Positions 2,053 through 54,414 of a stretch of DNA of 64,000 nt are shown in pieces (position 1 is the stretch's first letter; every line of letters begins with the position of its first letter). Position numbers and translations under genes: made by a program. The DNA is from Mobula hypostoma (taxonomy: Eukaryota): assembly GCF_963921235.1 (NCBI RefSeq), contig NC_086097.1, positions 112,036,001 through 112,100,000 on the forward strand. The letters are read 5' to 3'. The notes under the pieces are model-generated. The model made no database searches. It had not been told where the DNA came from and saw only the letters and a list, made by a program, of their open reading frames with translations.

Positions 2053-2074
2053 AAAAGAAGAGACATTGAAGAGT

Positions 2075-8962: not shown

Positions 8963-9289
8963 TTAGCGGAAGTTAGAGAAGTCGATGTTCATGCCATCAG
9001 GTTGGAGGCTACCCAGACGGAATATAAGGTGTTGTTCCTCCAACCTGAGTGTGGCTTCATCTTTACAGTAGAGGAGGCCGTTGATAGACATGTCAGAATG
9101 GGAATGGGATATGGAATTAAAATGTGTGGCCACTGGGAGATCCTGCTTTCTCTGGCGGACAGAGCGTAGATGTTCAGCAAAGCGGTCTCCTAGTCTGCGT
9201 CGGGTCTCGCCAATATATAAAAGGCCATATCGGGAGCACCGGACGCAGTATATCACCCCAGTCGACTCACAGGTGAAGTGATGCCTCAC
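8963..9289 (-). pseudogene. Penelope-like GIY-YIG endonuclease
   Basis: FTCESTGVIYCVRC..GLLYIGETRRRLGDRFAEH...RLEEQHLIFRLGSLQPDGMN. Confidence 0.93.
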
Positions 9290-9432
9290 CTGGAAGGACT
9301 GTTTGGGGCCCTGAATGGTGGTAAGGGAGGAAGTGTAAGGGCATGTGTAGCACTTGTTCCGCTTACACGGATAAGTGCCAGGAGGGAGACCAGTGGGGAG
9401 GGATGGGGGGGACGAATGGACAAGGGAGTTGC

Positions 9433-11062: not shown

Positions 11063-11098
11063 AGTCCTGACGAAGGGTCTCGGCCTGAAACGTCGACT
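11063..11098 (+). ncRNA. Minimal type I hammerhead ribozyme in the PLE pseudo-LTR
   Basis: AGTC-CTGACGA-AGG-gtctcgg-CCT-GAAA-CGTC-GACT: stem I AGTC/GACT, core CUGANGA and GAAA, stem II AGG/CCT, palindromic ACGT, GUC cleavage triplet. Confidence 0.8.
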
Positions 11099-11161
11099 GC
11101 ACCTCTTCCTACAGATGCTGCCTGTCCTGCTGCGTTCACCAGCAACTTTGGTGTGTGTTGC

Positions 11162-20589: not shown

Positions 20590-23500
20590 CCTACATTGAT
20601 GACCCTGATGCTCTAGGATGATTCTGGAGTTATTGAACTTGTTGGTCAGCGCTGTTGCTTTGAAACTATTTAGATGTGGTAGTGTCGCTCAGCATTTCCA
20701 CAGCTGCGAGAGAGGTGAGCCTGCTTGAATATTTGCCTGAACGTGGTAAATACTGCTTGCTGAAAACTCACCTTTTACAGGCTTTTGCCCAACAGTTGCT
20801 CTCCTTGCCCAGCCTCAACGATGGTAAGCCGTCAGAGCTAATGGACCACATGCTGTCTCTCCTGATGAATTACCATCTTTGTTTTATTTTTAAAGAACTC
20901 TTTCATGCAGCAAGTGCCTGATCTAGCTCGCATAGTCCTCACTAATGCATCCGTGATGGACTATAGGGAACTTGCTAAAATATTGATCGTCACACTCAGT
21001 GATGCATCACCTGTCCTCCTTTCTGTACCTTAATAAGCCTGGTCAGCAAGGCCCCTAACAGAAGGACACCAGCAGCTGCGAAACAGACAACACTGGACCT
21101 GTGCTTTTACCATGCTTGCTTTGGTAGGAACGCTAGGAAGTGCCGACAGTCTTGCAGCTTCGACGGTGCCAGCTCATCGGGACATCAGAGGCCTGTTCTA
21201 GCTGCCAGGGTGGCTTGTTCATCACAGACACCCTTTCATGACGACGCTTCCTGTGTGTCACAGCTGCTCAAGTGAGTGTGCTGCTGGCATTGATCAGAAG
21301 GCAAAGACCTAGAAAAGCTGGCAACTGCAAAGGCTGAGTTTGCCAACATGGAAAGACTTGGAATTGTACACTGAATGAATAGCCTTGGGCTTCACCCCTC
21401 CTTGTCGTACAGCTACAGATTGGTAAGTATGATATTGTGGCCATCACTGAGACGTGGCTAAAGGATGCATGTCTCTGGGAGCTGAACGTCCAAGGATACA
21501 CGGTGTATTGTAAGGATAGGAAGGTAGGCAGAGGGGGAGGCGTGGCTTCATTAGAAAGAGGTGATATAGGATCGGAAGGTGCAGAATCTTTATGGGTTGA
21601 GCTAAGAAATAGCAGGGGTAAAAGGACCCTGATGGCAGTTATTTATAGGCCTCCAAACAGCTGCAGTGATGTGGACTACAAATTACAACAGGAAATAGAA
21701 AAGGCTTGTCAGAAGGCCAGTGTTATGATAATTGTGGGGGATTTTAACATGCGAGTGGATTGGGAAAATCAGGTCGGCACTGGATCTCAAGAGAGAGAAT
21801 TTGTAGAATGTCTGTGAGATGGCTTTTTAGAACAACTTGTTGTTGAGCCCACTAGGGGATCGGCTGTACTGGATTGGGTATTGTGTAATGAACTGGAGGT
21901 GATTAGAGAGATTGAGGTGAAGGAACCCTTAGGAGGCAGTGACCATAACATGATTGAGTTCACTGTGAAATTTGAAAAAGAGAAGCCGAAATCTGATGTG
22001 TCAGTATTTCAGTGGATTAAAGGAAATTACAGTGGCATGAGAGAGGAACTGGCCAAAGTTGACTGGAAAGGGACACTGGCGGGAAAGACAGCAGAGCAGC
22101 TGTGGCTGGAGTTTATGCAAGAAGTGAGGAAGGTGCAAGACAGGTATATTCCAAAAAAGAAGAAATTTTCTAATGGAAAAAGGATGCAACCATGGTTGAC
22201 AAGAGAAATCAAAGCCAAAGTTAAAGAAAAAGGGAGGGCATACAAGGAAGCAAAAATTAGTGGGAAGACAGAGGATTGGGAAGTTTTTAAAAGCTTACAA
22301 AAGGAAACTAAGAAGGTCATTAAGAAGGAAAAGGTTAACTATGAAAGGAAGCTAGGAAATAATATCAAAGAGGATACTAAAAGCTTTTTCAAGTATATAA
22401 AGAGTAAAAGACAGGTGAGAGTAGATATAGGACCGATAGAAAATGATGCTGGAGAAATTATAATGGGAGATAAGGAGATGGCGGAGGAACTGAATGAGTA
22501 TTTTGCATCTGTCTTCACTGAGGAAGACATTAGCAGTATACCGGACACTCAAGGGCGGCAGGGAAGAGAAGTGTGCGCAGTCACAATTACGACAGAGAAA
22601 GTACTCAGGAAGCTGAATAGTATAAAGGTAGATAAATCTCCCGGACCAGGTGGAATGCACCCTCGTGTTCTGAAGGAAGTAGCTATGGAGATTGTGGAGG
22701 CATTAGCGATGATCCTTCAAAAGTCGATAGATTCTGGCATGGTTCCGGAGGACTGGAAGATTGCAAATGTCACTGTGCTATTTAAGAAGGGGGCAAGGAA
22801 GCAAAAAGGAAATGTTAGACCTGTTAGCTTGACATTGGTGGTTGGGAAGTTGTTGGAGTCTATTGTCAAGGATGAGATTACAGAGTACCTGGAGGCATAT
22901 GACAAGATAGGCAGAACTCAGCATGGATTCCTTAAAGGAAAATCCTGCCAGACAAACCTATTACAATTCTTTGAGGAAATTGCAGGTAGACTAGACAAGG
23001 GAGATGATGTTGTATATTTGGATTTTCAGAAGGCCTTTGACAAGGTGCCACACATGAGGCTACTTAACAAGATAAGAGCCCATGGAATTACGGGAAAGTT
23101 ACATACGTGGATAGAGCGTTGGCTGATTGGCAGGAAACAGAGAATGGGAATAAAGGGATCCTATTCTGGTTGGCTGCCAGTTACCAGTGGTGTTCCACAG
23201 GGGTCCGTGTTGGGACCGCTTCTTTTTACATTGTACATCAACGATTTGGATTATGGAATAGATGGCTTTGTGGCTAAGTTTGCTGGCGATACGAAGATAG
23301 GTGGAGGGGCCGGTAGTGCTGAGGAGACGGAGAGTCTGCAGACAGACTTGGATAGATTGGAAGAATGGGCAAAGAAGTGGCAAATTAAATACAATGTTGG
23401 AAAGTGCATGGTTATGCACTTTGGCAGAAGAAATAAGCGGGCAGACTATTATTTAAATGGGGAAAGAATTCAAAGTTCTGAGATGCAATGGGACTTGGGA

Positions 23501-26010
23501 GTCCTCGTACAGGATACCCTTAAGGTTAACCTCCAGGTTGAGTCGGTGGTGAAGAAGGCGAATGCAATGTTGACATTCATTTCTAGAGGAATAGAGTATA
23601 GGAGCAGGGATGTGATGTTGAGGCTCTATAAGGCACGTGAGACCTCACCTGGAATACTGTGCGCAGTTTTGGTCTCCTTATTTAAGAAAGGATGTGCTGA
23701 CGTTGGAAAGGGTACAGATAAGATTCACTAGAATGATTCCAGGAATGAGAGGGTTCACATATGAGGAACGTTTGTCTGCTCTTGGACTGTATTCCTTGGA
23801 GTTTAGAAGAATGAGGGGAGACCTCATAGAAACATTTTGAATGTTGAAAGGCATGGACAGAGTGGATGTGGCAAAGTTGTTTCCCGTTATGGAGGAGTCT
23901 AGTACGGGAGGGCATGACTTAAGGATTGAAGGGCACCATTCAGAACAGAAATGCGAAGAAATTTTTTTAGTCAGAGGGTGGTGAATCTATGGAATTTGTT
24001 GCCATGGGCAGCAGTGGAGGCCAAGTCATTGGGTGTACTTAAGGCAGAGATTAATAGGTATCTGAGTAGCCAGGGCATCAAAGGTTATGGTGAGAAGACA
24101 GGGGAGTGGGACTAAATGGGAGAATGTATCAGCTCATGATAAAATGGCAGAGCAGACTGAATGGGCCGAATGGCCGACTTCTGCTCCTTTGTCTTATGGT
24201 CTTATGGTCCATCTGGTCTCTAAGTGTGATAGTGGTTGCCGCCCATGTGGTGATTACTGATGCCTTAAAGATGCCAGCTGGTGCCACACATTCAAGACTT
24301 CTCAGTGTGTTTAGTTGGAAAGTTCTTTTTTTCCAAAGTTGATCTAGTTAGTGGCTGTGTGCTGGGAGGAAATTCCCAAAGTGGCTGTGATAACTCTGTT
24401 TGGCCTTTTTGAGTTTCTGCATATGCAATTTGGACTGAAAAATGCAGCACAGACTTTCAAATGGCTGATTGATTCTGTATTAAAAGATTTTCTTATTGTT
24501 TACCAGGATTACATACCTATCTACAGTGCATCCAAATCTGAACACATATCTAATCTCTGCACACTTTTTGAGTGCTTAAGCCAATATGAGTTGATTATCA
24601 ACCCTGCTAAATGCAGTTTGTTTTGTCAACCATTGACTTTCTCGGTCATAGCAGCTCCACAGAAGATGCGCAACCCCTCTTCTCAAAACTAGCTGTTTTT
24701 TTGGATTTCCCTCCGCCCACACTACTAAAAAGCTACAGGACTTTTTAGGCATGGTGAATTTCTATCACCACTTCATTCTGCGAGCTGCTGAACCTTTGCT
24801 CCTCCTGACCAGTTCATTTGATGATACCAAACGAGCTCTTTCTAACAGGACCCTACTGGTGCACCCTCTCTCAATGCACCCATAGCCATTACAATTGACG
24901 CCGCAGACTATGCTGTGGGTGCTGTGAATGAACAGCTGGCTGGAGACGTGTGGCAGCTGCTTGCCTTCTTCATTCGGCAGCTCTGTCCCCCTTAAGGAAG
25001 AGCCTGGTCTGTGAGCTTCTCGGTCTCTATCTCGCTGTCCGCCATTTTTGTTTTCTTCTAGTGGGTTGGCATTTCACAATATTCGTTGACCACAAACCCC
25101 TCGTGCACGCCATGGCCAAAATATCAGACCCTTGGTCTGCATGGCAGCAACACCAACTAGCCTACGCATCAGAGTTCACAACTGATACACAACATTTCAA
25201 GGGGAAGAATAATGCTGTGGCTGATTGCCTCTCCATTGAAGCTGTACACATAGGGGTTGATCATGCTGGCGTGGCAGCCAACCAAGTTACTGATCCAGAG
25301 GGCCAGGCTTAAAGAACAGCAGTTGCGGGCCTGAATTGGCTGATATTAAGTTTGAGGAGGCTGGGGTTTCTCTCCTGAGGGGTGTCACAACTGGTTGCCC
25401 ATGCCCCCTTGTGCCCACAAACTGGAGATGGACTGTTTTCGGTTCCATATGTGGCCTCTCCCATCTGGGCCAGAAGGCCTCCCAGAAACTGGTTGCATTA
25501 AAGTTTGTTTGACATGACCTCAGAAAGGATGTGCACGATTGGACTGAGCCTGTGTGGAGTGCAAACAGGAAAAAATTAACCATCATGTTCAGGTCCCATT
25601 GGTACCTTTTGAGGTCCCTGAGCGATGGTTTGACCATCTCAATGTGGACATTGTTGATCTTCTTCCCCCATCCTATGGTTTCTTGCACCTTCCTATTATG
25701 GTGGACCATACTACCCAGTGGCCAGAGGTCATTCCTCTAGCATCGACAATGGTTGCAGTTGTGGCTCAGGTGTTCATCAGCACCTGGGTTACTCAGTCTG
25801 ATACCCCTTCTGATATTTCCTCTGACCGAGGTCCCCAATTCATTTCAGGCCTCTCGGCTGCAATGGCCGAGAACCTCTATGTTAGGATACATCACACCAT
25901 GGTGTATCACCCACAGACCAGTGGCCTATGTACGTGTTTTCTCCACTCCTTAAAGACTGCTCTGAGGGCTTCCCTGACCAATGAGTGCTGCTATGATTGG
26001 TTCCCATGTT
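20590..26010 (+). mobile_element. Heavily decayed Ty3/gypsy internal region (gag-RT-RH-IN), split by a CR1; no LTRs recognised
   Basis: DGKPSELMDHML (gag); SPWASPL|HLVSK; MQFGLKNAAQTF; VDHKPL; integrase FDHLNVDIV..SDRGPQF..YHPQTSGL. Confidence 0.85.
21401..24209 (+). mobile_element. CR1 LINE, near-complete ORF2 (APE + RT) with stops and frameshifts
   Basis: AITETWL, IYRPPN, GDFN, SDHN (APE); 616-aa ORF 21881..23731 with YLDFQKAFDKVPH, GVPQGSVLGP and FAGDTK (catalytic D lost); (TCTTATGG)2 tail. Confidence 0.95.
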
Positions 26011-27009
26011 GCCAAGTAATCCTCCACCCTCCATTATCAATAACTTGAGGATCACCATTGATGAATTATGTACTTAGGCTACTCACACAGTAGTTTGTGT
26101 ACAGAAGCAGTTTGGAGGCTTGGTATCATGTCGTGATTGACTCATTTCTTTGCACACCAAAGACTTTTCACCATCTTCAAGACAATACTCTGGAACATGG
26201 TGAATAACTCTCCATTTGCCTAGTTGTGTGTAGCTCCAACAGTACTCTAGAATCTTAACAACATTCAGGAGCCTGCTTAGCTGGAACTCCAACCATCCTT
26301 AAAACATTCACTCCCCCCATCAAGGCTGCACAGTTGCATTGTGTGTAAGCCTCAAATTGTGCTTTTTGAGCCCAAACCTACATCATCAAGAACAATGGAA
26401 TCAGGGCAGGGGAATACAGGCCTTTGTACTTTACTTTCCATTACAAATCTTTCTTACTTGGAAATATATTGCTGTTCTTACATCTTCAATGATTCTACAT
26501 TTCAGACTTCCCTACCCTAAAAACATGAGACAACTTTTGCCTGAATGGTTCAAGAAAGTGGCTCACTTTTATCTTCTCAGGAAAAATTCTCAAGTACCTT
26601 CTCAAGAACAATGCCACTGTGCCCAGAGAACGTTGGTGAAGTTTTCTGCATTTTGGATGTAGACTTGGACCACAGACTTTTTCAGACTTGTAGTTTTTTT
26701 GTATTCTGTGTTTTTCGGCCAATCTTTCTCATTTTTTTTACGTGTGAGGGGAATTTGGGGGTTGATGTGCCTGTTCCTTTTTAGTTTGTTTTTTTGTGCA
26801 GGGAAGGGGGGATTTGGGGGTAGATGATAATGCTGCCATTCTTTTCTTTTCATTCTTGGTTTCATGGCTACCCAGAAAAGAAGAATTTCGGAATTGTATA
26901 ATTTGATAATAAATGAACTTTTAAACGTTAGATTTAGGATTGGACTGAATCAAGTCGGCTTCAGTGATGAAGGTCTCAAGAGAGAACATGCACTTGGCAT
27001 TTCTTTCTT

Positions 27010-29548: not shown

Positions 29549-29909
29549 CTGTAGGGATTACAAAATAGAAAAAATGAAGCTTAGAATATTTGCATTTACT
29601 CAAATATTTATTTTTAAAAAACTAATAATTTCAGAAATCTGGCTGTTCAGACATTCTTACGTTATAACTTTGTAGGATGAATGATGGGAGAGAATGAAAC
29701 CCCGGCTAGAAAACGCAGAGACAAAAACAGTATTCTGAAATAATTTTTTTTTAGTATTCTCAGTTTCATTTTGATTTGGCTTTTCAACATCTGCATTCCT
29801 TTGTTCCATTAAAATCAGAGAGGCCAGGGGTGGGAGATTCCATGTCACTCATTGATGGTAGCCTCTTAATAAACTTATCCATGGAACGTCAATTCACGAA
29901 TTAAGAGAA

Positions 29910-30260
29910 TTAAAGTCATGGAGCACTACAGCACAGAATCTTTGGCCCATCTAGTCCATGTTGAACTATTGTTCTGTCTAGTCCTATCAATCTACACCTG
30001 GGCTACAGCACTCCATACCCCTTCCATCCATGTACTTAACCTAACTTCTCTTCAATTTTGAAATCAAACCTCTATCCACCACTTCTGCTGGGAGCTTGCT
30101 CCACACTCTCACCACCCTTTGAGTGAAGAAGTTCTCCCCTCAGGTTTGCAGAAACATTTCACCTTTCACCCTTAACCCATGACCTCTAGTTGTAGTCTTA
30201 CTCAACCCCAGTGGAAAAAGCCTGATAGCATTTACTCTATCTATACCCCTCTTAATTGTA
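29910..30260 (-). mobile_element. CR1 LINE 3' end
   Basis: Reverse complement resembles 18020-18405. Confidence 0.75.
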
Positions 30261-30779
30261 TTATCTGAGCTTCCAAGAAACGTAGGGAGAGAAATTCATG
30301 CATGGTTTGATTGTGTTATGCACACATCTTAGTTACTTTAAGAATTAAGTTCCACAGGATTCAATCCAAAATCAAATTTCTAGATGAGAACTTAATGGTA
30401 CTATTTATACCATTCTAGACATGTCTATGAAACTACAGAATGTAATCTGATTAAACCAGTGACCATCTGCAAGGGCAGATGGAGCTTTGGAAAAGGCAAT
30501 TGATTCTCTTTTCAAAGTTAGGTGGATGCCTTACTAGATATAAAGAACTTGGCTTCAGTCTCGCATTCTGATAGATTTTTTTGCCCAGTGGAAGGAGTTA
30601 AAAATGTCACACCCCTCAATACTGTTAATCTTTGACCAACATTTTACAGCGCTCTTTTATTTCTCATTTACATTTTTATTGACTTTTCATTTTTATGTGG
30701 ATTTTCCACATTGTACCCAGCTGATGGTCTGAGGGAAGAAAAAGATGTGAGAAGAAACAGTGAGCTAAAATGGAGGAAA

Positions 30780-31165
30780 GTGGACGTTAGATACAACACC
30801 AAGTCATGTCATCTGCAGAAATTCTCTGATGACTCCGCAATAGTTGGGTGTATAAAGGGAGGACAGGAGCATGAATACAAGGCCCTGGTGAAGGACTTCG
30901 TCAAATGGTGCAATCTCAATCAACTGCAGCTCAATATTAGTAAGACAAAGGAGACTTTAGGAAGTCTCAGCCTACATTGCTCCCTGTTACTATTGATGGT
31001 GAGGATGTGGTTGAAGTGATGACTCCCTCCTGTTAGACTGTTTGTGGTAACTTATTTTTTATTCTTTCTACTTTTCTTTTAATATCTTTCTCTGTGCACT
31101 TGTAATGCTACTGTGATACTATAATTTCCTTTGGGATCAATAAAGTATCTATCCATCCATCTATT
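30780..31165 (+). mobile_element. Rex1/Babar-like LINE fragment
   Basis: CHLQKFSDDSAIVG..LQLNISKTKE; ggatcaataaagt + (ATCY)n tail. Confidence 0.8.
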
Positions 31166-31429
31166 AGAACTGCATGAATCATGGATTTGACACAACAGGT
31201 ACAAGATGTTGTTGTGCAGGACTGCACATGGGTAATAAAGTTGACTGCTAGGTTAACTATCAGGCTAAGATTATGAATGCTCCATTTCAACCTGAGACAA
31301 TAGCTAGGGAGAGTGCTGAACTCTCCGCAACAGCCTGCATTGAGGACATTTTTTGTTTTTTATTTGTAGTGTTAGGCTGGCCAATTTCCTATCCATGTTC
31401 ATCAAAAAATCCTTCAAGTTCTGCTTTAT

Positions 31430-33360
31430 GTCACAAAGAGAAAATATGAGATAGATCTGGCAAATAAGATTATGGAAAATCTAAGGGGCTCTAAATCTAT
31501 ATTAAGAGTAAAAGAGTGGCTAGTGAGAGAATAGGTCCTCTTAGAGAGCACCATGGTTGCCTATGTCTTGAACCACAGGAAATGGATGGGATTTTTAATG
31601 AATATATCCCCTCATTGCTTACTGAGAAGGAAATTGTAGTTGCTCAAGAGGAAAAGGAAACAAGTGGTGATGTTTTGGAGGACATTCATATTATCAGGAA
31701 AGAGATATTTGTAGCCTTACCGCACATTAAGATGGATAAACCCTGGGGCTTGATTGAGTGCATCCTGAGACTTTGTGGAGGCTAGAGAGGAAATTGCAGA
31801 GGTCCTAATGGAGATAGTTGCTTCATCATTAGCTACTGGTGAAGTTCCTGAAGACTGGAAGGTGACTAATGTTGTCCTGTTGTCTAATGGAATGGCATTT
31901 TGGATGGACATAGTCTGATTAGGAGGAGAGGTAATAATAAAGCTAGATGAGTGTAGGGCAGTGGATGTTTGGACTTTAACAAGGCCTTCAACAAGGACCC
32001 ACATGGTAGGGTGGCCTGGAGGGTTGGGTTCCATGGATCCCAGAGAGGGCTTGTTAGGTGGAATCAAAATTGGCTTGAAAGTAGGAAGCTGAGGTGGTGG
32101 TTCAAGGTTGTTTCTTGGAACGGAACTAGAGGTATACTGCAAGGGTTGATGTTGGGATCGTTTTCATTCATTATTTATATAAATGATTTGGATGCAAATG
32201 CATGAGGCTTAGTCAATGTGTTTGTGGATGACACAAAATTAGGAGATGTTGTTAGTAATAAAGAAAGTTATTGTAGATTACAGGGGAATCGTGATCTTTT
32301 AGGGAAGTGGGCTCAAGAGTGGAAAATGGATTTCAGTACAGATAACTGAGACATGATGCGTATTGAAAAGTCAAACCAGCATAGGATTTTCACTACGAAT
32401 GGTAATTCAGTGAGCAGTCAGTGGTGGGAAGGATGAGTAGTTTTAAATTCCAGGGTGTCAACATCTCAGAGGAACTACCTTGAGCTCAATGTATTGATGC
32501 AATAACAAAGAAGGCACACCAATGGCTCTACTTCATTAAGAGTTTGAGGTGATTTGATATGTCACCAAAGACTAGCAATTTTCTAGAAATGTACAGTGGG
32601 GAGCTTATGACTAGTTGCATCAAAGTTTGGTATAGAGGCTCCAATGCACAGGATCACAAAAGGCTGCGGAGAGTTGTAAACTACACCAACTCCATCATAG
32701 GCACAATCCTCTGCACCTCTAGGACATCTTCAAGAGGACATCATAACTAAACCCCCTCACCATCCAGGACGTACCATCTTCATGTGGCTACCATCAGGGA
32801 AGAAGTACAGGAGCCTGAAGACCCACTCACAATGTTTTAAGAACAACTTCTTCCATCCACCATGAGATTTCTAAATGAGTGCATGAGCCCACAAGCACTA
32901 CCTTGTTATCCATCTTTTGCCCATTTTTATACTTTGCATGCATATATTTTTGTAACTTGTAATAATTGTATTATCTTGACTGTATTGCTGCCACAAAACA
33001 AATTTCACGACATACTGTATGTAATGATAAACTATTACCAATAATATGTAAGAGTAATAATAAACCTAATTTTCTGATTCTTTGGCAATAGGACAGCAAT
33101 GGAACAGAGGGAGCTAGGAGTATAACTGCATAGTTCATTGAAAGTTGGTGTCACAGGTGAAAAAGGCATCTGGTTTACTGGCCTTCATCAGTTATGGCAT
33201 TGAGTATAGGAGTTAGGACATTATGTGAATGATGAGGCCACATTTGGAGAACTGTGCACAGTTTTGGACACTCTTCTATAGGGAATGTGTAGATAAACTG
33301 GAAAGAGTGCAGAAAAGATTTATGAGGATGTGGCCAGGACTATAGGTTCTGAGTTATATC
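31430..33360 (+). mobile_element. Old CR1 LINE with a nested Rex-like fragment (~32405-33080)
   Basis: DFNKAFNKDPH, YINDLD; Rex-like KRLRRVVN..LPSGKKYRSL segment inside. Confidence 0.75.
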
Positions 33361-34229
33361 TTGGCCTTAAACCATGCCCCCTAGTTTGATAATTCTCCAT
33401 TCAGGGGAAGCTATCTCTCACCATCTACTCTCCCTCAGAATGATTCATGTTTCACTTTGACCACTGCTCATTCTTCTGAAATTGAGAAAATACAGTCTTA
33501 TCAACTCAACATTTCCCCATAGGAGTATCTCTCCTTCCTAGGAAGCAACCTAAAGAACCTTCTTAGAACTGCCTTTGAGTAGAGTCCTATACAGTTGTAG
33601 CAAAACTTCACTACAGTCCTGCAGTATTCCCCTTACACCAAAGGCTGACACTACATTTACCTTCTTAATTACACAGTGTATCGGTATCCTAACTTCCTGA
33701 AATTTGTTTTACAAGTACACACAGGTCTCTCTGCGCACTGGCAAGATAGTCTCACAATATTAAGGTAGTATTCAGTTTTTCTATTCTTCCAGCTAAGGTG
33801 GATAATCTCACTGTCATGGTCCGGTCCGGTTCACAGTCTGGTCCATCAACCCTTGCTCCAGGTTTTCCTGTCTACCCTGTTTCTGTCCTTGTTGAGCTCT
33901 AATTGAGGCAGCTGATGCTCGTTGGGGCTGGCTGCATAAATAACTTCAGAGACCAGGGCGTGGCTGCTGGATTGTTCTTGTCCTTACTCCTTGTATCCCT
34001 TCCTCTGCCTTCTGTTTCCTCGCCTGAAGCCCTGCCTTGTCTTGCCGGTAACTCTCACCTCACTTGAAGTTCTCGTCTCGCCTTGCTTTGCCAGAAGCCT
34101 TGCCTTGTCTTGCCGGTAACTTTCACCTCACCTGAAGTTCTCGTCTCACCTTGCATTGCCTGAAGCCTTGCCTTGTCTTGCTGGTAACTCTCGCCTCATC
34201 TCGCCTGCAGTCTTGTCCTGGAGCCACCC

Positions 34230-34810
34230 TGTACCTAGCTCTCTTCCTGTCCCTTGCCTTCGCCCAGGTAAGCCAGGCTGTCTTGCCATTACCCTGCGGC
34301 TGGTTCTGTCCCTTCCTGTCCCTTGCCTCCATCGGGTAAGCCAGGCCGTCTTGCCGTACCTACGGTTGGTTCTGTCCCTTCCTGTCCCATGCCTCCGTCG
34401 GGTGGTGATCCACGCCCTGCCCAGGAGTACCGCGCCCTGCCCAGGAGGAGCCTGCCTAGCCTCAAGCCTGAAGACTCCAGCCTCCTGCCTCCTGCCAAGC
34501 CTCACCTCAAGTCTCTAGCCTCTAGCCTCAAGCCTGAAGACTCCAGCCTCCTGCCTCCTGCCAAGCCGCGCCTCGTCTCTAGTCTCTAGCCCCAAGCCTG
34601 AAGACCCCAGCCTCCTGCCTCCTGCCATGCCTCGTCTCTAGCCTCTAGCCCCAAGCCTGAAGACCCCAGCCTCCTGCCTCCTGCCACGCCTCGTCTCTAG
34701 CCTCTAGCCTGAAGCCTGAAGACTCCAGCCTCCTGCCTCCTGCCAAGCCTCGTCTCTAGCCTCAAGCCTGAAGACTCCAGCCTCATCCTGCCTGCCTGCC
34801 AAGCCTCGTC
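34230..34810 (+). repeat. Two tandem minisatellite arrays within LTR1
   Basis: ~57-bp unit ggtaagccagg..gttctgtcccttcctgtccc (x2) and ~45-60-bp unit ctagcc(t/c)caagcctgaagac(t/c)ccagcctcctgcc (x6). Confidence 0.9.
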
Positions 34811-35041
34811 CTTGCCTAGTTCTGGTGTCCGAGCCAGAGGAAAGACCCAGGTACTGGTTCCTTGTCCAATCTCTGGCTCGGAGTCCAAGCCCGGGCTCCT
34901 AGCTCTCTTGTCCAGTCCTGTTCTGGGTTCCCGGTTTTCGTGTCCATGTCCTTGCCCTCACCTTGTATCCTAGTCCTGTCCCTAGTATTTCAGTGTCTGT
35001 GTCTTGCACTTGGGTCCATTCCCAGCCATCTCCTTGCGTCA

Positions 35042-35053
35042 GAACAATCCAGC
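35042..35053 (+). promoter_or_regulatory. Self-priming primer binding site
   Basis: GAACAATCCAGC is the exact reverse complement of GCTGGATTGTTC at 33966-33977 (and 35371-35382), ~30 nt downstream of the TATA-like CATAAATA (33935-42). Confidence 0.85.
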
Positions 35054-35524
35054 CACCCATGGACCCAACAACACAGACACCGTTATTTTCCTCTTGCCAC
35101 CTGGAGTTCCTTTCTGTTAAGTACCCTCCCACCTGCCCAGGTCATCCATTGTCCGGATACCCTGTTTGGTTGCCAGGAGGCTCCCGTAGAGGGGGGGTAC
35201 TGTCATGGTCCAGTCTGTGAAGTCCGTATTCTGGTTCACGGTCCGGTCCATCGACCCTTGCTCCAGGTTTTCCTGTCTACCCTGTTTCTGTCCTTGTTGA
35301 GCTCCAATTGAGGCAGTTGATGCTCGTTGGGGCTGGCTGCATAAATACCTCCAGAGACCAGGGTGTGCCTGCTGGATTGTTCTTGTCCTTACTCCTTGTA
35401 TCTCTTCCTCTGCCTTCTGTTTCCTCGCCTGAAGCCTTGCCTTTTCTTGCCGGTAACTCTCGCCTCGCCTGAGGTTCTCGTTTTGCCTTGCATTGCCTGA
35501 TGCCTGCTGGTCTTGCTGGTAACT

Positions 35525-37698
35525 GGCAAATGACACTTAAAGGATTGACGGTGGATATGCAATGGTAAGCATTTAAAGGTTGCATGGATGAACTACAACA
35601 ATTGTTCATCCCAGTTTGGCAAAAGAATAAATCAAGGAAGGTAGTGCACCCGTGGCTGACAAGAGAAATTAGGGATAGTATCAATTCCAAAGAAGCAGCA
35701 TACAAATTAGCCAGAGAAAGTGGCTCACCTGAGGACTGGGAGAAATTCAGAGTTCAGCAGAGGAAGACAAAGGGCTTAATTAGGAAGGGGAAAAAAGATT
35801 ATGAGAGAAAACTGGCAGGGAACATAAAAACGGACTGTAAAAGTTTTTATAGATATGTAAAAAGGAAAAGACTGGTAAAGACAAATGTAGGTCCCTTGCA
35901 GACAGAAACAGGTGAATTGATTATGGGGAGCAAGGACATGGCAGACCAATTGAATAATTACTTTGGTTCTGTCTTCACTAAGGAGGACATAAATAATCTT
36001 CCAGAAATAGTAAGGGACAGAGGGTCCAGTGAGATGGAGGAACTGAGCGAAATACATGTTAGTAGGGAAGTGGTGTTAGGTAAATTGAAGGGATTGAAGG
36101 CAGATAAATCCCCAGGGCCAGATGGTCTGCATCCTAGAGTACTTAAGGAAGTAGCCCAAGAAATAGTGGATGCATTAGTGATAATTTTTCAAAACTCGTT
36201 ATATTCTGGACTGGTTCCTGAGGATTGGAGGGTGGCTAATGTAACTCCACTTTTTAAAAAAGGAGGGAGAGAGAAACCGGGGAATTACAGACCGGTTAGC
36301 CTAACGTCGGTGGTGGGGAAACTGCTGGAGTCAGTTATCAAGGATGTGATAACAGCACATTTGGAAAGCGGTGAAATGATCGGACAAAGTCAGCATGGAT
36401 TTGTGAAAGGAAAATCATGTCTGACGAATCTCATAGAATTTTTTGAGGATGTAACTAGTAGAGTGGATAGGGGAGAACCAGTGGATGTGGTATATTTGGA
36501 TTTTCAAAAGGCTTTTGACAAGGTCCCACACAGGAGATTAGTGTGCAAACTTAAAGCACATGGTATTGGGGGTAAGGTATTGGTGTGGGTGGAGAATTGG
36601 TTAGCAGACAGGAAGCAAAGAGTAGGAATAAACGGGACCTTTCCAGAATGGCAGGCGGTGACTAGTGGGGTACTGCAAGGCTCAGTGCTGGGACCACAGT
36701 TGTTTACAATATATATTAATGACTTGGATGAGGGAATTAAGTGCAGCATCTCCAAGTTTGCGGATGACACGAAGCTGGGTGGCAGTGTTAGCCGTGAGGA
36801 GGATGCTAAGAGGATGCAGGGTGACTTGGATAGGTTGGGTGAGTGGGCAAATTCATGGCAGATGCAATTTAATGTGGATAAATGTGAAGTTATCCACTTT
36901 GGTGGCAAAAGTAGGAAAACAGATTATTATCTGAATGGTGGCCGATTAGGAAAGGGGGAGGTGCAACGAGACCTGGGTGTCATTATACACCAGTCATTGA
37001 AAGTGGGCATGCAGGTACAGCAGGTGGTGAAAAAGGCGAATGGTATGCTGGCATTTATAGCGAGAGGATTCGAGTACAGGAGCAGAGAGGTACTACTGCA
37101 GTTGTACAAGGCCTTAGTGAGACCACACCTGGAGTATTGTGCGCAGTTTTGGTCCCCTAATCTGAGGAAAGACATCTTTTCCATAGAGGGAGTACAAAGA
37201 AGGTTCACCAGATTGATTCCTGGGATGGCAGGACTTTCATATGAAGAAAGACTGGATGAACTGGGCTTGTACTCGTTGGAATTTAGAAGATTGAGGGGGG
37301 ATCTGATTGAAACGTATAAGATCCTAAAGGGATTGGACAGGCTAGATGCAGGAAGATTGTTCCCGATGTTGGGGAAGTCCAGAACGAGGGGCCACAGTTT
37401 GAGGATAGAGGGGAAGCCTTTTAGGACCGAGATTAGGAAAAACTTCTTCACACAGAGAGTGGTGAATCTGTGGAATTCTCTGCCACAGGAAACAGTTGAG
37501 GCCAGTTCATTGGCTATATTTAAGAGGGAGTTAGATATGGCCCTTGTGGCTACGGGGGTCAGGGGGTATGGAGGGAAGGCTGGGGCGGGGTTCTGAGTTG
37601 GATGATCAGCCATGATTATAATAAATGGCGGTGCAGGCTCGAAGGGCCGAATGGCCTACTCCTGCACCTATTTTCTATGTTTCTATGTTTCTATGTTT
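35525..37698 (+). mobile_element. Young 5'-truncated CR1 LINE inserted in LTR2
   Basis: LTR2 breaks at ggtaact| and resumes at |cttgcctcg; (TTCTATGT)n tail; no TSD, ACT microhomology. Confidence 0.96.
35584..37596 (+). CDS. CR1 ORF2 RT and C-terminal domain, uninterrupted 670 codons (no endonuclease; not autonomous)
   Basis: NYRPVSLTS, YLDFQKAFDKVPH, QGSVLGP, FADDTK, LYKALVRPHLEY. Confidence 0.85.
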   Translation: MDELQQLFIPVWQKNKSRKVVHPWLTREIRDSINSKEAAYKLARESGSPEDWEKFRVQQRKTKGLIRKGKKDYERKLAGNIKTDCKSFYRYVKRKRLVKTNVGPLQTETGELIMGSKDMADQLNNYFGSVFTKEDINNLPEIVRDRGSSEMEELSEIHVSREVVLGKLKGLKADKSPGPDGLHPRVLKEVAQEIVDALVIIFQNSLYSGLVPEDWRVANVTPLFKKGGREKPGNYRPVSLTSVVGKLLESVIKDVITAHLESGEMIGQSQHGFVKGKSCLTNLIEFFEDVTSRVDRGEPVDVVYLDFQKAFDKVPHRRLVCKLKAHGIGGKVLVWVENWLADRKQRVGINGTFPEWQAVTSGVLQGSVLGPQLFTIYINDLDEGIKCSISKFADDTKLGGSVSREEDAKRMQGDLDRLGEWANSWQMQFNVDKCEVIHFGGKSRKTDYYLNGGRLGKGEVQRDLGVIIHQSLKVGMQVQQVVKKANGMLAFIARGFEYRSREVLLQLYKALVRPHLEYCAQFWSPNLRKDIFSIEGVQRRFTRLIPGMAGLSYEERLDELGLYSLEFRRLRGDLIETYKILKGLDRLDAGRLFPMLGKSRTRGHSLRIEGKPFRTEIRKNFFTQRVVNLWNSLPQETVEASSLAIFKRELDMALVATGVRGYGGKAGAGF

Positions 37699-37749
37699 CT
37701 TGCCTCGTCTCGCCTTCAGTCTTGTCCTGGAGCCAACCCGTACCTAGCT

Positions 37750-38227
37750 CCATTCCTGTCCCTTGCCTCCGTCAGGTAAGTCAGGCTGTCTTGCCATTAC
37801 CCTGCGGCTGGTTCTGTCCCTTCCTGTCCCTTGCCTCCGTTGGGTAAGCCAGGTCTTCTTGCCGTTACCTGCAGTTGGTTCTGTCCCTTCCTGTCCCTTG
37901 CCTCCGTTGGGTAAGCCAGGTTATCTTGCCGTTACCTGCGGCTGGTTCTGTCCCTTCCTGTCCCTTGCCTCCGTTGGGTAAGCCAGGCCGTCTTGCCGTT
38001 ACCTGTGGTTGGTTCTGTCCCTTCCTGTCCCATGCCTCTGTCGGGTGGTGATCCGCGCCCTGCCCAGGAGGAGCCTGCCTAGCCTCAAGCCTGAAGACTC
38101 CAGCCTCCTGCCTAGCCTCAAGTCTGAAGACTCCAGCCTCCTGCCTCCTGCCAAGCCTCATCTCTAGCCTCTAGCCTCAAGCCTGAAGACTCCAGCCTCA
38201 TCCTGCCTGCCTGCCAAGCCTCGTCTT
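37750..38227 (+). repeat. Same two minisatellite arrays within LTR2, different copy numbers
   Basis: ~57-bp unit x5; second unit x3. Confidence 0.9.
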
Positions 38228-39473
38228 TGCCTAGTTCTGGTGGCTGAGCCAGAGGCAATACCCAGCTACTGGGTCCTTGTCCAGTCTCAGGCTTGGAGTC
38301 CAAGCCCGGGCTCCTTGCTCTCTTGTCCAGTTCTGCTCCGGGTTCCCGGTTTTCGTGTCCATGTCCTTGCCCTCACCCTGTATCCTAGTCCTGTCCCTAG
38401 TCCTTCAGTGTCTGTGTCTTGCAGTTGGGTCCGTTCCCAGCCACCTCCTTGTGTCACTCACATTTTTACAAGATATACTATATTTTTCCATTTAGCTGAC
38501 CTATCTATTATTCCCTTGTGGAATATTTTTTGTCATTCTTAAAATGACTTTGTCTGCTATATTTGCATCATTAGCAAATATGTATGCTACATGCTTGGTC
38601 ATATCCATAAGATCATAAGATGTCGGTGCAGATCTAGGCCACCAAGTCTGCTCCGCCATTCAATCATGGCTGATGTTTCTTTCAGCCCCATTCTCCTGCC
38701 TTCTCCCTGCAACCTTTAACTCCTTTAACAATTAAGAACTTACGAGATTCTACCTTAAATACACCTAATGACTTGGTCTTCTCAGCCTTCCGTGACAGTA
38801 ACTTCAACAGATTCACCACCCTTTGGCTGAAGAAATTCCTCCTCGTGTCCTTAATGTAAGTTTTAAACAGTTGAAGCAGAAATCACCATAGTACTTCAAT
38901 ATTACCTTTCTATCAATATCACAGCTTTTGACTTGTTGCATGTATTTTTTGTGGCTCTTTGTCAACTGCCTTTTAGAAATCCAACTATACCATAGCAACG
39001 ATTTTCTCGTTATCCACACTGAAAGCTACATCCCCAAATATCTCTAACATACGTGTCAAATATACTGTCCCATTCTGTCAAGCATGTTGACTGCCTAATC
39101 TTCTTACTATTTTCTCAGAGTCCTGTTCCATAATAATAAACTACAGAATATCTCAATCGCAGATGTTACACTAACTCGCGTATTTCCCTCCTTATTTTCT
39201 CTCTAGCTCCTTTCTATAATAGAACAGTTACATTTATGGTGTTCCAATTATTGGGATTCTTTCAGAATCCCAGGAATTCACAGCCTACACATTACTTATC
39301 TCCACTAGGAAGGAGGTCAGGTCAGCTTTCATGCCTATTGGTTTACCCAATTGTATTTCTCCAGTGACAATGTCTTCCCTCCATTTTGCCTCTTATTTTC
39401 ATCATATGGTGGGTGTTTTGGTACCTTCTACAGTGAAGTCATCTACAAAATGCTTGTTTAACATCTTGTCATT

Positions 39474-40035
39474 TAATAGACAATAGACAATAGGCGCAGT
39501 AGTAGGCCATTCAGCCCTTTGAGCCAGCACCACCACTCACTGTGATCATGGCTGATCATCCACAATCAGTACCCTTTTCCTGCCTTCTCCCCATATCCCT
39601 TCACACTACTATCTTTAAGAGTTCTATCTAACTCTTTTTTTGAAAGAATTCAGAGAATTGGCCTCCACTGCCTTCTGAAGCAGAGCATTCCACAGAACCA
39701 CAACGCTCTGTGTGTAAAAGTTTTTTCCTCAATTCCTAAATGGTCTAAATTGTCTACCCCTTATTCTTAAACTGTGGCCTCTGGTTCTGGACTCCCCCAA
39801 CATCGGGAACATGTTTCCAGCCTCTAGCATGTCCAATCCCTTAACAATCTTATATGTTTCAATCAGATCCCCTCTCATTCTTCTAAATTCCAGTGTATAC
39901 AACCCCAGTTGCTCCAATCTTTCAACATATGACAGTCCCGCCATATTGGGAATTAACCTCGTGAACCTACGCTGCACTCCCTCAATAGCTAGAATGTCCT
40001 TCCTCAAATTTGGCGACCAAAACTGCACACAATAT
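39474..40035 (-). mobile_element. CR1 LINE 3' end
   Basis: ORF 39729..40028 QFWSPNLRKDILAIEGVQRRF; (AATAGAC)n tail on + strand. Confidence 0.9.
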
Positions 40036-40974
40036 TCAATATTTACTTATAGATTTTCCTTCCTCAACTTCTAATTGTGGTATTCTTCCTTCTCGTGTAC
40101 TCATAGGTCTTCCTGTTCCTTAAAAAGATACTTCCATATTTCAGCTTCTTCTGCTTTATCGTTTTTTTAGTGTAAATGATTGACTTGTTGTCCTTCTCTA
40201 AAGTGTTTTCAAATTCTTGGAAGGTTTTACTGCTTCAGAGCCATTATACAAATATCAGTTGTTGGTGCATGTTTCCAATCAGACATGAGGAATCTCTTAT
40301 ATCACTGCTAGTTAAGGTTCTTTGATGTTGTGGTGTTCTCCGAGCTTGGCAATTAGCTTGTAGACATTTCATATATTAAGGTACTCTTCCAATATGGTTT
40401 GGAATGAAATTCAAGGATCTGGACCAAATAACAATAAGAATACAGCAATAGATTTCTACATTAAGATAGTACATAACAGGAAGAAAATCAGAATTTGAAG
40501 GTGTTCCCATGTGGTTGCTGCCACTCTCTTTTCTAATTAAATAGATTGTTGGTTTGTGGAACTTCAATATGTCAAACAGCATCTATGGAGGGAATTAGAT
40601 AGTTAACGTTTTTGGGTTGAGACTCTTCATCTGAATTCTCCAGCTGAAGGGTTTCGACTTGAAATGTTGGCTGTCTATTTCCCTCCACAGCTGCTGCCGG
40701 AGACCATTGACTTTCTCCAGCAGTTTAGGTTTTTATTGTTCATTGAGGAGTTTGGGGGGTTGCTGTCAGAGTCTAGGAAGGAAGGGCAGTTATGTACTTA
40801 TGTACTTCACAGTTAATCAACATGAGGATAATTTGGCCACAAAGGCAGGTGTCCATTTTGATAGAAGATTCATAACTAGAATGATATCTCAGTAAGTGAC
40901 AATGGAAGTAACGTTTCTCATCACTTGTCCAACTAAATGGGCAAAACTCACTAAAAACACGAGAGAGCCGATGA

Positions 40975-41330
40975 TGGAAATCCAAAGCAACGTATACAGA
41001 ATGCTGGGGGAGCTCTGTGGGTCAGGCCACTCCTATGGAAAAGAGTAAACAATCGACGTTTCAGCCAAGAACTTCCTTCAGGACTGAAAAAGAAGGTGGA
41101 AGGCACCAGAATAAAAAGGTGGGGGAGGGAAAGGAGGACAACTAGAAGGTGATAGGTGAAGCCAGGTGGGTGGGAAAGGTCAAGGGCTGGAGAAGCAGGA
41201 ACCTAATGGGAGAGGAGAGTGGACCACAGGGGAAAAGGGAGGATGAGGGACTCAGAGGGTAATGATAGGTAGGTGAGAAGAGGTAAGAGGTCAGAGTTGG
41301 GAATAGAAGAAGAGGGGAGTGGGAGCAATA
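40975..41330 (-). mobile_element. Old PLE pseudo-LTR relic
   Basis: Similar to 8560-8950; degenerate hammerhead at 41051-41086 (CTGAAGG). Confidence 0.7.
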
Positions 41331-41524
41331 CACCAACAGTCTATTTTACGTACTTGACAATAACTTTAAGGGAACACTGTTCTTTGGGAGAAAAGGAAAT
41401 TCAAAAGAAAGCATTGTAAATATATAAAAAAGGTCTAGATGAAACTAATGTTTATAAAATGTATGTGAGCATATTAATTTCTGATAATATAATATATAGA
41501 TTTATGTTATCATTTGCTTCTTAC

Positions 41525-41857
41525 CATGTTAGCTGCAGGATTCTGTACCTCCTCTATATTGAATAATTTGGCCCAGCGTCTTTTCTGTAAAATTTTTTCA
41601 TGCAAAAATCGCACACGGTTCTCCTCAGTCTTTTTATAAAATGATGTTAAAACTAAAATTTTCAAAATTGTAAGTTTTGCTGAAAGTAAAGCGAGTAATA
41701 ATAAGATGGCTAATAGTACAACAAGTGGAATCCATATCTTGCTTATTGATAGCGTTGGTTCAAGGATGCAGGCATCTTTAGATAAGTTAATGTCAGATGA
41801 GAAGTTCTCTTCATCTGTCTCACTGGTTTCAAAAATAGAGAAGATTCTGGTATGTTC
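41525..41857 (-). CDS. DCSTAMP: DC-STAMP second coding exon (111 codons; last TM and cytosolic tail); not in ORF track
   Basis: Acceptor ttttttaacag| at 41858. Manual translation: EHTRIFSIFETSETDEENFSSDINLSKDACILEPTLSISKIWIPLVVLLAILLLLALLSAKLTILKILVLTSFYKKTEENRVRFLHEKILQKRRWAKLFNIEEVQNPAANM. Donor ATG|gtaaga at 41525/41524. Matches the recalled mammalian CIPKP..WVPL..LKILVSASFYP..RIQYLHAKLL region. Confidence 0.93.
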
Positions 41858-42254
41858 CTGTTAAAAAAACAACAAGGTAACTACTTAATGCCAAAAGAAG
41901 ATGGTCCAGGAACTGATAGGTTGAGATTAAGGTGTGTTAGAATGTGGCAGGCCAATGCAAAATTTCTTTGGATTTCCATTATTTTAAACTTCAATAGTAC
42001 ATGTTGCCCAAGGCATCAATGAACAAATGTTTTGATGAAGGCGATCTTACAAGGAAAGTCAGCTAAGTGTTGGTCTGCAGCAATGTGATTCAGGATGATG
42101 GGTGTCACAGGATGATGGGATAGGTGGGAGGGTTGGAAGTCTAGAGCAGACCTAAGTCTGAAATCTCAGTTCTTTTCTTTCAATCTTTGAAATCTGTTGT
42201 GAACAGTTGATCCCCAGGACACCCATTACACACAGTGCCCCAACCCAAAGATGC

Positions 42255-52614: not shown

Positions 52615-52985
52615 CCCCCAACCTGATGGCATGAATATCGATTTCTCCTTCCAGCAAGCAAAACCACCCCCTACGTCCTCTATTCCCCACTCTGATATTT
52701 TACTTCTCCTCACCTACCGATCACTCCCCCCTGGGTCCTTTCCTCCTTCCCATTCTCCTATGGTCCACTCTCCTCTCCTATCAGATTCTTTCTTCTCCAG
52801 CCTTTCCCACCCACCTGGCTTCACCTATCATCTTCCAGCTAGCCCCTTTTCTCTGCCCCTGGCATCTTCCCCCCCTTCCTTCTCGGTCCTGAAGAAGGAT
52901 CTTTACCTGAAACATCGACCGTTTATTCTTTTCCATAGATGCTGTCTGACCTGCTGAGTTCCTCCAGCATATTGTGTGTGGTGCT
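52615..52985 (+). mobile_element. Old PLE pseudo-LTR relic
   Basis: caacctgatggcatgaatatcgatttctc (QPDGMNIDFS) matches 10731-10760; ends ctgctgagttcctccagcatattgtgtgtg. Confidence 0.8.
52884..52921 (+). ncRNA. Minimal hammerhead ribozyme in an old PLE relic
   Basis: CGGTC-CTGAAGA-AGG-atcttta-CCT-GAAA-CATC-GACCG: core intact, 5-bp stem I, AUC triplet. Confidence 0.6.
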
Positions 52986-53062
52986 TAAAATACCTTAGTA
53001 CAATCTACCATGCAAAAGTTAACCACAAATTGTTCTGTGTTAAGGAAAGTATGTATACTTAC

Positions 53063-54085
53063 AGAAAATTTTGCTTTCATTGTAATGTTTATTGTAGGCA
53101 GATGGTCCATGTGATGTCGTATTGAATCTGTAAGTAAAAATACTCCACAATCTAGCATTATGAGTATTGTCCAGATACACAGGTGACTCAAGACAGGAAC
53201 CAAGAATCTTGCCATGCTGCTTAGTTCCATTTTGGATAAACATAGTGCTGGGATTCTAATGAAGCTTTTATTCTCTTTTTTAGTTAGTTGGCACAAATGC
53301 GGTTTTCCTGCTTCTTTCTGCTTTTCATCAAATTTCAGGAATTGATTTGTAATAAATACATTTTCAAACTTGATATCAGTTAAAAATTTTCTGATGTAGA
53401 ACCAGGTGAATGACAGAACCAGCAAAAGACAAATGAGAGCTATTGAATGTTTACAAACTCTGGAAAATGAGCTTAACATTGAAATGATGTTCTTAGCCTG
53501 GATCTCTAAGTTTATTGTAGTTTCATTGAGCTTTATTCTTATAGCATCATCATTAACTGTTGAATAAATCTTAAGATCATTTGAAAAATGTACAATAATG
53601 GTTCCTAATGGTTTATATTTGCCGATCCATTCCAAGGCTTCTTTGTACTTTGACAAAAGATATCTGATGGATGATAGCATTCCAACCAAGAAACAATTTA
53701 AGTTATCTACTAATTCCATTAAATTGTGAAAGCTATTTTTGGCACAGTTAAAGAGCACTATGCTGGTACCAGCTGTTATCAGGGCATTGCGGCCTTTCTT
53801 GGTTCCACATGAAATAAGGAATATCAGGACAAAGCATCTGAAATACTTGGAAAGAAACAGAGCTCCAGGAATAACCACAGAAAGGGTTCCAAACACTGCT
53901 AGGGCCACTGAGAGATTGCACTCTAGTTTCTGCAGGCAAATATAAACAATTCCACTAGCTCCTATGCCTAACACAAGACAAAGTGAGATCAGGTACAGAA
54001 TGTTCTTCAAACCAGATTTCCTTTCTGATGCATACACTTCAAAGAGATCTCCAAAAAACTGAGCAGCCATCTTGAGAACAGCCAT
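53063..54085 (-). CDS. DCSTAMP: DC-STAMP (dendrocyte expressed seven transmembrane protein), first coding exon (341 codons)
   Basis: ORF 52985..54085 encodes a multi-TM protein with DC-STAMP-like segments (RCFVLIFLISCG..GRNALITAG, FENVFITNQFLKFDEKQK..GKPHL). Acceptor tttccattgcag lies at 54109-54120, 23 nt upstream of the ATG. Phase-0 donor TCT|gtaagt at 53063/53062 (1023 nt). Confidence 0.95.
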
Positions 54086-54414
54086 TTTATTGATGAGGGA
54101 TATTGTTCCTGCAATGGAAAAATTGAGATCAAATAAAATATCAAGAAATTAAGTATCAATTAAAAAGCACAGCTGAATGTATTAATATCTTGTCAAGGGG
54201 TGTGATAACTTAGCATAAAAAACAGCAGAAATACAAAGACATTCTCCCCAGCTTGCATTCAGCTACCAGTTAGTTGAAAGAGGATTTTTGAATTAACATG
54301 CAGGGAAAGGGTATGTATTTTTTGTGTTCATCCTTTCATAATGAGTTATTACCAAAAACACTAGCAATGGAATAAAAGTAGTGATTGCAATAAATATAAC
54401 CAATACTTAGATGT

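Follow-up and report, generated by a model that had tools for sequence, protein, structure and literature searches.

The window analysed here, a stretch of 64,000 nucleotides of the Mobula hypostoma genome (contig NC_086097.1, positions 112,036,001 to 112,100,000 of the forward strand), contains exons of the DCSTAMP gene on its minus strand. Two of them are marked by open reading frames (52985-54148 and 41513-41860) that both match the Pfam family DC_STAMP, and the last exon starts near 29548, where it was recognised from its splice site together with an ISFWFP-like motif. The last coding intron hosts, in antisense orientation, a retroelement with two long terminal repeats (LTRs) that extends from 33812 to 38456 and measures 2,473 bp when a later insertion is subtracted. 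The evidence presented below suggests that this element has decayed and belongs to a multi-copy family without coding capacity, self-priming and of the Tf1/sushi chromovirus type, which would be moved by a helper element; we give this reading a probability of about 0.72. An original prediction for this DNA had already placed the element in an intron of DCSTAMP, which the flanking DC_STAMP frames bear out; the intron number that it gave (3) presupposes a first exon that we take to be non-coding. Nothing indicates an effect on DCSTAMP, given that the element has decayed and sits in an intron in antisense orientation.

Anatomy and age of the element

The element has the outline that was first proposed for it: two LTRs of about 1.1-1.2 kb, a perfect 5-bp target-site duplication (TSD) with CTCAC on both sides, and a very short interior (Table 1). 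Each LTR comprises approx. 440 bp of unique sequence (in the 5' LTR, ~210 and ~230 bp), which flanks three tandem arrays whose copy numbers are unequal between the 5' and 3' LTRs. The extent of the 3' LTR was also confirmed, although the original prediction did not mention that this LTR is split by a long interspersed nuclear element (LINE) of the CR1 type. The LINE is 2.17 kb long, carries a 675-aa reverse transcriptase (RT) frame (Pfam RVT_1, E 3.8e-32), and ends in the tail CTATGTTT. It looks young, with its RT frame open, and lacks a clear TSD. At a distance of 1.8-2.3 kb, an inverted CR1 piece of greater age (39476-40037, minus strand) forms a 79-85% inverted repeat with it.

Outside the arrays, the two LTRs differ at 33 of 441 sites (Kimura two-parameter distance 0.079); thus, this copy of the element is old and decayed. 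An absolute age calculated with a rate of 7e-10 per generation, taken from another shark (PMC10587355), came to ~5e7 generations, which is implausibly many, and only the statement that the copy is old was kept. No second copy of the LTR or of the interior was found within the window.

Table 1. Features of the element and of its host intron (positions in the window)
Feature	Position	Strand	Remarks
TSD CTCAC, left copy	33807-33811		Direct repeat
5' LTR, 1,230 bp, TG...CA	33812-35041	+	
TATA-like box CATAAATA	33935-33942, copy 35340-35347	+	Putative function
Predicted self-primer (RNA 5' end)	33966-33978, copy 35371-35383	+	Complementarity
Tandem array, 68-bp unit, 2.6 copies	34022-34198	+	5' LTR
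Tandem array, 66-67-bp unit, 2.4 copies	34243-34403	+	5' LTR
Tandem array, 59-bp unit, 5.9 copies	34456-34810	+	5' LTR
Outer U5-leader helix, U5 arm	34993-35002	+	Pairs with 35071-35080, 10/10 Watson-Crick
Inner U5-leader helix, U5 arm	35010-35019	+	Pairs with 35059-35068, 10/10 Watson-Crick
Interior, 159 bp	35042-35200	+	No recognisable gene
Non-tRNA primer-binding site (PBS)	35042-35053	+	13 nt counting the last LTR base, 35041
Leader arms of the U5-leader stem	35059-35080	+	Include the ATG of the MDP frame
Polypurine tract (PPT; 35188-35197), followed by a TAC spacer that adjoins the 3' LTR	35188-35200	+	Chromovirus-type boundary
3' LTR	35201-38456	+	1,084 bp net of LINE
CR1-type LINE, 5'-truncated	~35527-37698	+	Entered the 3' LTR later; does not belong to the family
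66-67-bp array, 4.4 copies	37749-38046		3' LTR
59-bp array	38074-38199		3' LTR; shorter than its 5' counterpart
TSD CTCAC, right copy	38457-38461		Direct repeat
DCSTAMP last coding intron	29549-41524	-	Hosts the element, antisense

Primer-binding site and predicted self-primer

The sequence at 35041-35053, that is, the PBS together with the last base of the LTR, is an exact reverse complement (13 nt) of the predicted self-primer in both LTRs, and in each LTR this primer begins 31 nt below the first base of the TATA-like box CATAAATA. This agrees closely with the original prediction of a 12-13-nt complement ~30 nt below a TATA box. None of 2,000 simulated LTRs with the same dinucleotide make-up contained a complement longer than 10 nt, and neither the PBS 12-mer nor its complement occurs again within the window. 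A whole tRNA 3' end cannot fit the PBS, because TGG does not occur in the 5 nt next to the LTR end; ARAGORN found no tRNA within the window. With respect to whole tRNA 3' ends, the PBS is thus as unlike a tRNA-type site as had been claimed, and this condition, which would have refuted the original prediction, did not apply. Transcription would start at ~33966, about 31 nt below the TATA-like box.

The U5-leader stem and the long loop

Two perfect, nested 10-bp helices, which the original prediction did not contain, join the end of U5 to the part of the leader that follows the PBS. A pair of helices of this kind appeared in only 1 of 20,000 simulations, and the local fold of the region has a z score of -3.8 (1 of 200 shuffles). 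When folded with ViennaRNA in a 1.2-kb RNA, the stem has pair probabilities of 0.76-1.0, and the PBS is predicted to lie largely unpaired in its 39-nt loop; when the leader is omitted, the model pairs primer and PBS at a probability of ~1. Because the stem and the primer/PBS pairing cross, together they would form a pseudoknot. In Tf1/sushi elements, a structure called the pretzel consists of a central primer/PBS duplex and two duplexes of PBS-adjacent sequence with LTR sequence (PMC10085805), and the pseudoknot predicted here would comprise two of these three duplexes.

The leader arms of the stem include the start of a 53-aa frame, MDP...PGGSRRGG (35059-35217), so that both its ATG and its MDP codons lie within the paired region. 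Their position in an RNA stem may explain why these codons were retained, and the MDP frame has probably been kept as RNA structure rather than as protein. A hairpin over the PPT did not exceed chance (z -0.8 and -1.5), and a scan of Rfam yielded two weak matches, far below gathering scores.

Primer and PBS are separated by 1,075 nt in the 5' LTR. It was considered whether the C/T-rich arrays are needed for the two ends to meet, and this idea was rejected: four of four shuffled loops still paired, with primer/PBS probabilities of 0.98-1.0, and the reverse complement as well as nine of nine unrelated segments of the window gave the same range. In the folding model, the ~1.07-kb loop would thus be no obstacle, and neither its length nor its arrays appear special. 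The original prediction had called the loop unusually long and filled with tandem repeats; its length and arrays hold, but it is no thermodynamic oddity in the model, and Sushi LTRs in general have been described as having an early TATA box and a long R (PMC3601003).

A multi-copy family in related organisms

Parts of the window occur in sequencing runs of five organisms; the runs with small shares, X11-X20, form no part of the evidence. Relatives of the element were sought in contigs from four sequencing runs, X1 and X10 (organism A), X5 (organism B), and X9 (organism C), which were mapped to 34811-35440 at 80% likeness. Among the 17,706 mapped pieces, the 32 longest (8 per run) were listed, and in 13 of these (six pieces in X1, four in X5, two in X9, and one in X10) the interior is covered over 105-153 of its 159 bases, with an identity of ~81-90% and 0-3 gaps. 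No orthologous locus in organisms A or B was present among the listed pieces, which were mapped to the element and not to its flanks. X10 is only guessed to be RNA, and its interior-spanning contig was not counted as evidence of transcription. In particular, six X1 contigs overlap at 35096-35174 as distinct versions, at a depth of 9-17. There are 14 interior sites at which this copy deviates from most relatives, and the most frequent alternative letter is carried there by 18-54 contigs in X1 and 16-59 in X5. Many differing contigs from three organisms are thus collinear across the interior, whose shortness therefore characterises the family in no fewer than three related organisms. Only one of the 15 joints listed (of 23) falls within the interior, and it represents a shorter variant in a single contig. 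The check proposed with the original prediction, multiple loci with the same deletion junction and different TSDs, is thus borne out in these organisms as regards a multi-copy short interior, which goes against a deletion unique to this locus; neither a deletion junction nor TSDs of other copies came to light.

Summed depth at the listed interior sites from 35056 onwards reaches at least ~700 in X1 and ~550 in X5, while single long contigs mostly have depths of 6-25; in X1, interior bins sum to 1,600-6,800 and LTR bins to 45,000-440,000. Summed depth is not a copy number, and all that is read from these values is that interiors number from tens up to a few hundred, with LTRs being much more numerous. 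LTR depth exceeds interior depth approx. 100-fold in the three organisms; the LTR is thus very abundant, and mostly solo or joined to other interiors. Loose ends at the LTR termini show low agreement, as expected with many different flanks.

The contigs also bear on the history of this copy. There are 16 listed LTR sites at which it deviates from the majority of relatives. At 13 of them the deviation is confined to one LTR, with the other LTR matching the majority, and at three it is common to both. Together with the perfect TSD, this pattern fits a reverse transcription and integration event of its own. Within the interior, the copy deviates at one of 47 positions in the PBS, stem, and PPT (where the pair is preserved as G-U) and at 13 of 112 positions elsewhere (p 0.04); this comparison, which rests on 40 of 166 rows, hints that the cis signals may have been spared from change.

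Behind position 35024, two contigs of X10 continue from a sister LTR end into a PBS-like word that matches the PBS only in its first five bases, and related variants of the LTR end occur behind 35026 in X1, X5, and X9. The PBS-like word resembles the outer leader arm. The sister LTR end may mark a subfamily that uses a different primer, or else a short deletion may have brought the start of the PBS next to the outer leader arm.

Lineage and coding capacity

The boundary between the PPT and the 3' LTR points to the chromoviruses. A search of metagenomes with the PPT/LTR-start pattern returned eight matches, six of which (L118, L119, L121, L123, L124, and L125) read as fungal-looking chromovirus 3' ends, in which the integrase/chromodomain end runs into an LTR and the G-run/TAC/TGTCA boundary is nearly letter-identical to that of the fish element; the Pfam family Chromo was present in three of three tested. 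The remaining two (L120 and L122) are not retroelement ends, and none of the eight is from this family or from a vertebrate. Pattern matches in IMG/VR (28 and 89) were dismissed as chance, as 0 of 125 loci align to the LTR or the interior at E 1e-3.

The 53-aa frame exists as originally described. Sushi gag genes begin with MDP, and the frame had been viewed as a gag start fused to a pol end. The PPT/LTR matches favour this view for the 3' boundary only; searches brought up no protein relative of the frame, and no deletion junction came to light. Two matches among 1.84 billion sequences were internally repetitive proteins without bearing on the question. To judge from the cis signals, the helper would be an element of the sushi type.

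Comparison with known systems

The Tf1/sushi group includes Tf1, Tf2, Tj1, Tosmo1-3, and Tcry1 as well as the vertebrate V-clade elements sushi-ichi and Amn-ichi/ni/san (PMC10085805, PMC4600332, PMC6317226, PMC3601003). The M. hypostoma element resembles these elements in having a non-tRNA PBS whose complement lies in the LTR a short way below the TATA box, a duplex of U5 with the leader next to the PBS (the part of the pretzel behind the PBS, with 10 + 10 bp), a T-rich LTR with an early TATA box, a TGTCA start, a G-rich PPT with a short spacer, and a 5-bp TSD. It differs from them in lacking gag, pol, and the chromodomain, in its 159-bp interior, and in the third pretzel duplex, which was not found in this copy. 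The element would thus work like the Tf1/sushi chromoviruses, with its placement read here from cis signals rather than from a coding region. Sushi LTRs have been described as having an early AT-rich promoter, AATAAA near the 3' end, and a mean length of 572 bp (n=24) (PMC3601003). The LTRs of the M. hypostoma element are approx. twice this mean, owing to the three arrays between primer and PBS; a long stretch from the start site to the PBS is a trait of the Sushi clade, which the arrays have here about doubled.

The original prediction had also called the element similar to TRIMs (miniature retrotransposons with terminal repeats) or large retrotransposon derivatives (LARDs). It is non-coding and fits the wide sense of TRIM (LTRs, PBS, PPT, TSD, and no coding domains; PMC13570524), including many copies with the same reduced interior in the three related organisms, but at 2,473 bp net it lies outside the size limits of both classes. 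Classic TRIMs are shorter than 1 kb, with terminal repeats of 100-250 bp, far from the 1,230 and 1,084 bp found here, and their PBS is complementary to a tRNA 3' end, in contrast to the self-complementary PBS of this element; LARDs exceed 4 kb and have a long non-coding interior. A large excess of other or solo LTRs is shared with TRIMs, LARDs, small LTR retrotransposons (SMARTs), and long TRIMs, from which the element differs in its vertebrate host (PMC13570524, PMC6934838). In a set of 115 sugar-beet families, the combination of long LTRs and a short interior is described as common (PMC13570524), and bivalve TRIMs could not be assigned any mechanism of priming (PMC6934838).

Vertebrate TRIMs are known from the Helenus group, namely LTR-11_DR of zebrafish and LTR1_LCh and LTR2_LCh of the coelacanth (PMC10886601). 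Like the element described here, they are non-coding two-LTR elements of fishes; they are moved in trans, as proposed for this element, and the animal families are tied to Gypsy helpers. However, they measure 0.3-1.3 kb, contain tRNA-derived LTR sequence, are described as primed by tRNA, and in animals produce a 4-bp TSD (PMC10886601), whereas the M. hypostoma element has a TATA-type promoter, a self-complementary PBS, and a 5-bp TSD.

Self-priming is not rare, since it has been predicted for 12% of the plant LTR elements surveyed (PMC6317226). It has been demonstrated for yeast Tf1, in which RT/RNase H cleaves and extends the 5' end of the RNA, and in the literature consulted is only "implicated" for vertebrate sushi elements (PMC4600332). 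Thus, self-priming in the Tf1/sushi group and families with long LTRs and a short interior are each known separately. A literature search returned no description of a self-priming, non-coding LTR family; Repbase and Dfam lay outside that search, and an existing entry is possible there. We see roughly even odds that the element belongs to an undescribed family of gene-less, self-priming LTR parasites of vertebrates, in which a Tf1-type pretzel would persist in 159 bp relieved of all coding function, with a loop of ~1 kb filled by repeats and RT supplied in trans by a helper.

Proposed mechanism and alternative explanations

The steps of the proposed cycle can be outlined by analogy with Tf1. 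RNA polymerase II would start ~31 nt below the TATA-like box, at ~33966. In the transcript, the end of U5 would pair with the leader behind the PBS, and the resulting 10 + 10-bp stem would keep the PBS open; the first 12-13 nt of the RNA, whose complementarity to the PBS is exact, would then pair with it as a pseudoknot. RT/RNase H of a co-expressed sushi-type helper may free the 5' end of the RNA and extend it as the minus-strand primer, yielding an unusually long minus-strand strong-stop DNA of ~1.06 kb. The PPT would prime the plus strand, and the integrase of the putative helper would insert the DNA, leaving a 5-bp TSD such as that observed here. The 159-bp interior would be the remnant of a helper-type interior reduced to its cis signals. 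After insertion, this copy would have aged in place to the 7.5% difference between its LTRs, array lengths would have shifted, and the CR1 element would have entered the 3' LTR.

Several results weigh against this account. Neither LTR contains AATAAA or ATTAAA, so that no canonical poly(A) signal marks the 3' end of the RNA and R; the sole poly(A) variant listed, CATAAA, lies inside the TATA-like box and is too far upstream for an R region that extends past the primer. The AATAAA that Sushi LTRs carry near the 3' end (PMC3601003) is likewise missing, and with respect to the Sushi terminal motifs TGTYANR...CNTNACA (PMC3601003), the element matches the 5' motif and deviates from the 3' motif, which most relatives match. 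The third pretzel duplex, between the LTR and the sequence before the PBS, reaches at best 6-7 bp in this copy, which is the chance level; in both LTRs of the copy, two of the six terminal bases, at the site of this duplex, are unlike those of most relatives. When the leader is included, ViennaRNA retains the U5-leader stem and loses the primer/PBS pairing, a pseudoknot being beyond the model. Sequence searches found no coding helper element, and the 53-aa frame has no homologue in protein searches, no usable match in Atlas, and no Pfam family. No junction to a longer parent interior came to light, as none of the 18 loose ends listed (of 669) lies inside 35042-35197. Finally, copies were counted in related organisms rather than in the M. 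hypostoma genome, and the relatives' contigs break inside the LTRs. They revealed neither TSDs of other copies nor, being contigs, a start site, and primer/PBS covariation was not observed.

Other explanations can be weighed against the same observations. It is conceivable, but unlikely, that the family is non-autonomous with priming that is not intramolecular, the primer coming from a co-packaged RNA (of the helper or of a second copy), a tRNA half, or another small RNA and the LTR complement being inherited from the helper. To judge from depth, the primer sequence is common to thousands of LTR copies, and any co-packaged RNA of the family could supply it; the missing third duplex also fits such priming. 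Nevertheless, folding joins both ends at a probability of ~1 whatever the loop, Tf1-type priming is described as a structure of a single RNA (PMC10085805), and there is no TGG at the PBS. The pairings might instead serve packaging, dimerisation, or the hiding of the ATG or of a poly(A) signal, with something else as the minus-strand primer. The stem does bury the ATG, a canonical poly(A) signal is missing, and a literature search found no priming experiment on a vertebrate element; yet the complement begins at the last base of the LTR, precisely the point required for priming of the minus strand, and the sequence it pairs with lies at the TATA-to-start distance in both LTRs, which makes this explanation very unlikely.

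The remaining alternatives concern how the short interior arose and spread. An ancient deletion derivative could have multiplied at the DNA level, by segmental duplication, by tandem arrays of LTR and interior, or by gene conversion. TRIMs often form tandem arrays (PMC13570524, PMC6934838), and the short contigs do not extend to the flanks or TSDs of other copies. Against this, the copy is solitary in 64 kb and has its own perfect TSD, 3 of the 16 listed LTR variants are common to both LTRs and not to most relatives, and the cis signals seem to have been spared (p 0.04); we consider multiplication of this kind improbable. That a full-length element was inserted at this locus and then shortened by a single deletion is hardly credible: the copy count does come from related organisms only, but many different contigs from three organisms are collinear through the interior, and interior depth nowhere falls to the single-copy level. 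A mobile, self-priming family that depends on a helper thus remains our preferred reading.

Other elements in the window

A decayed Gypsy element with a SCAN domain (Pfam) lies at 5430-12102 on the minus strand, with apparent integrase pieces ahead of RT and RNase H, a domain order that we take to be Gmr1-like. It is interrupted at ~8963-10707 by an RT-bearing element, presumably Penelope-like. On the plus strand, a long CR1 copy (21383-24206) contains an endonuclease-like frame and a 637-aa RT frame, and a further Gypsy pol fragment (24932-26048) comprises RNase H-like and integrase core segments that score below the Pfam cut-off. A 173-aa frame at 1068-1589 on the minus strand has a motif by which, we assume, it resembles the end of an early-branching non-LTR element where the restriction-like endonuclease lies.

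Significance

In autonomous elements, the leader doubles as the start of gag, and selection on RNA structure and selection on protein are inseparable. This confound disappears in a family that codes for nothing and has diverged interiors in numbers of tens to hundreds, and a single genome could directly show covariation of primer with PBS and of U5 with leader; the sister LTR type, if it is a subfamily with its own primer, would be a case of such covariation. Annotation tools that require a tRNA-type PBS or coding domains miss such elements, even though the LTR is among the very abundant repeats in these genomes. If the proposed reading is true, self-priming would also be open to RNAs lacking an RT of their own, and the many copies of the family would constitute a natural mutation scan of the cis requirements of self-priming. 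The value of the element lies in providing a coding-free test case of self-priming in a vertebrate.

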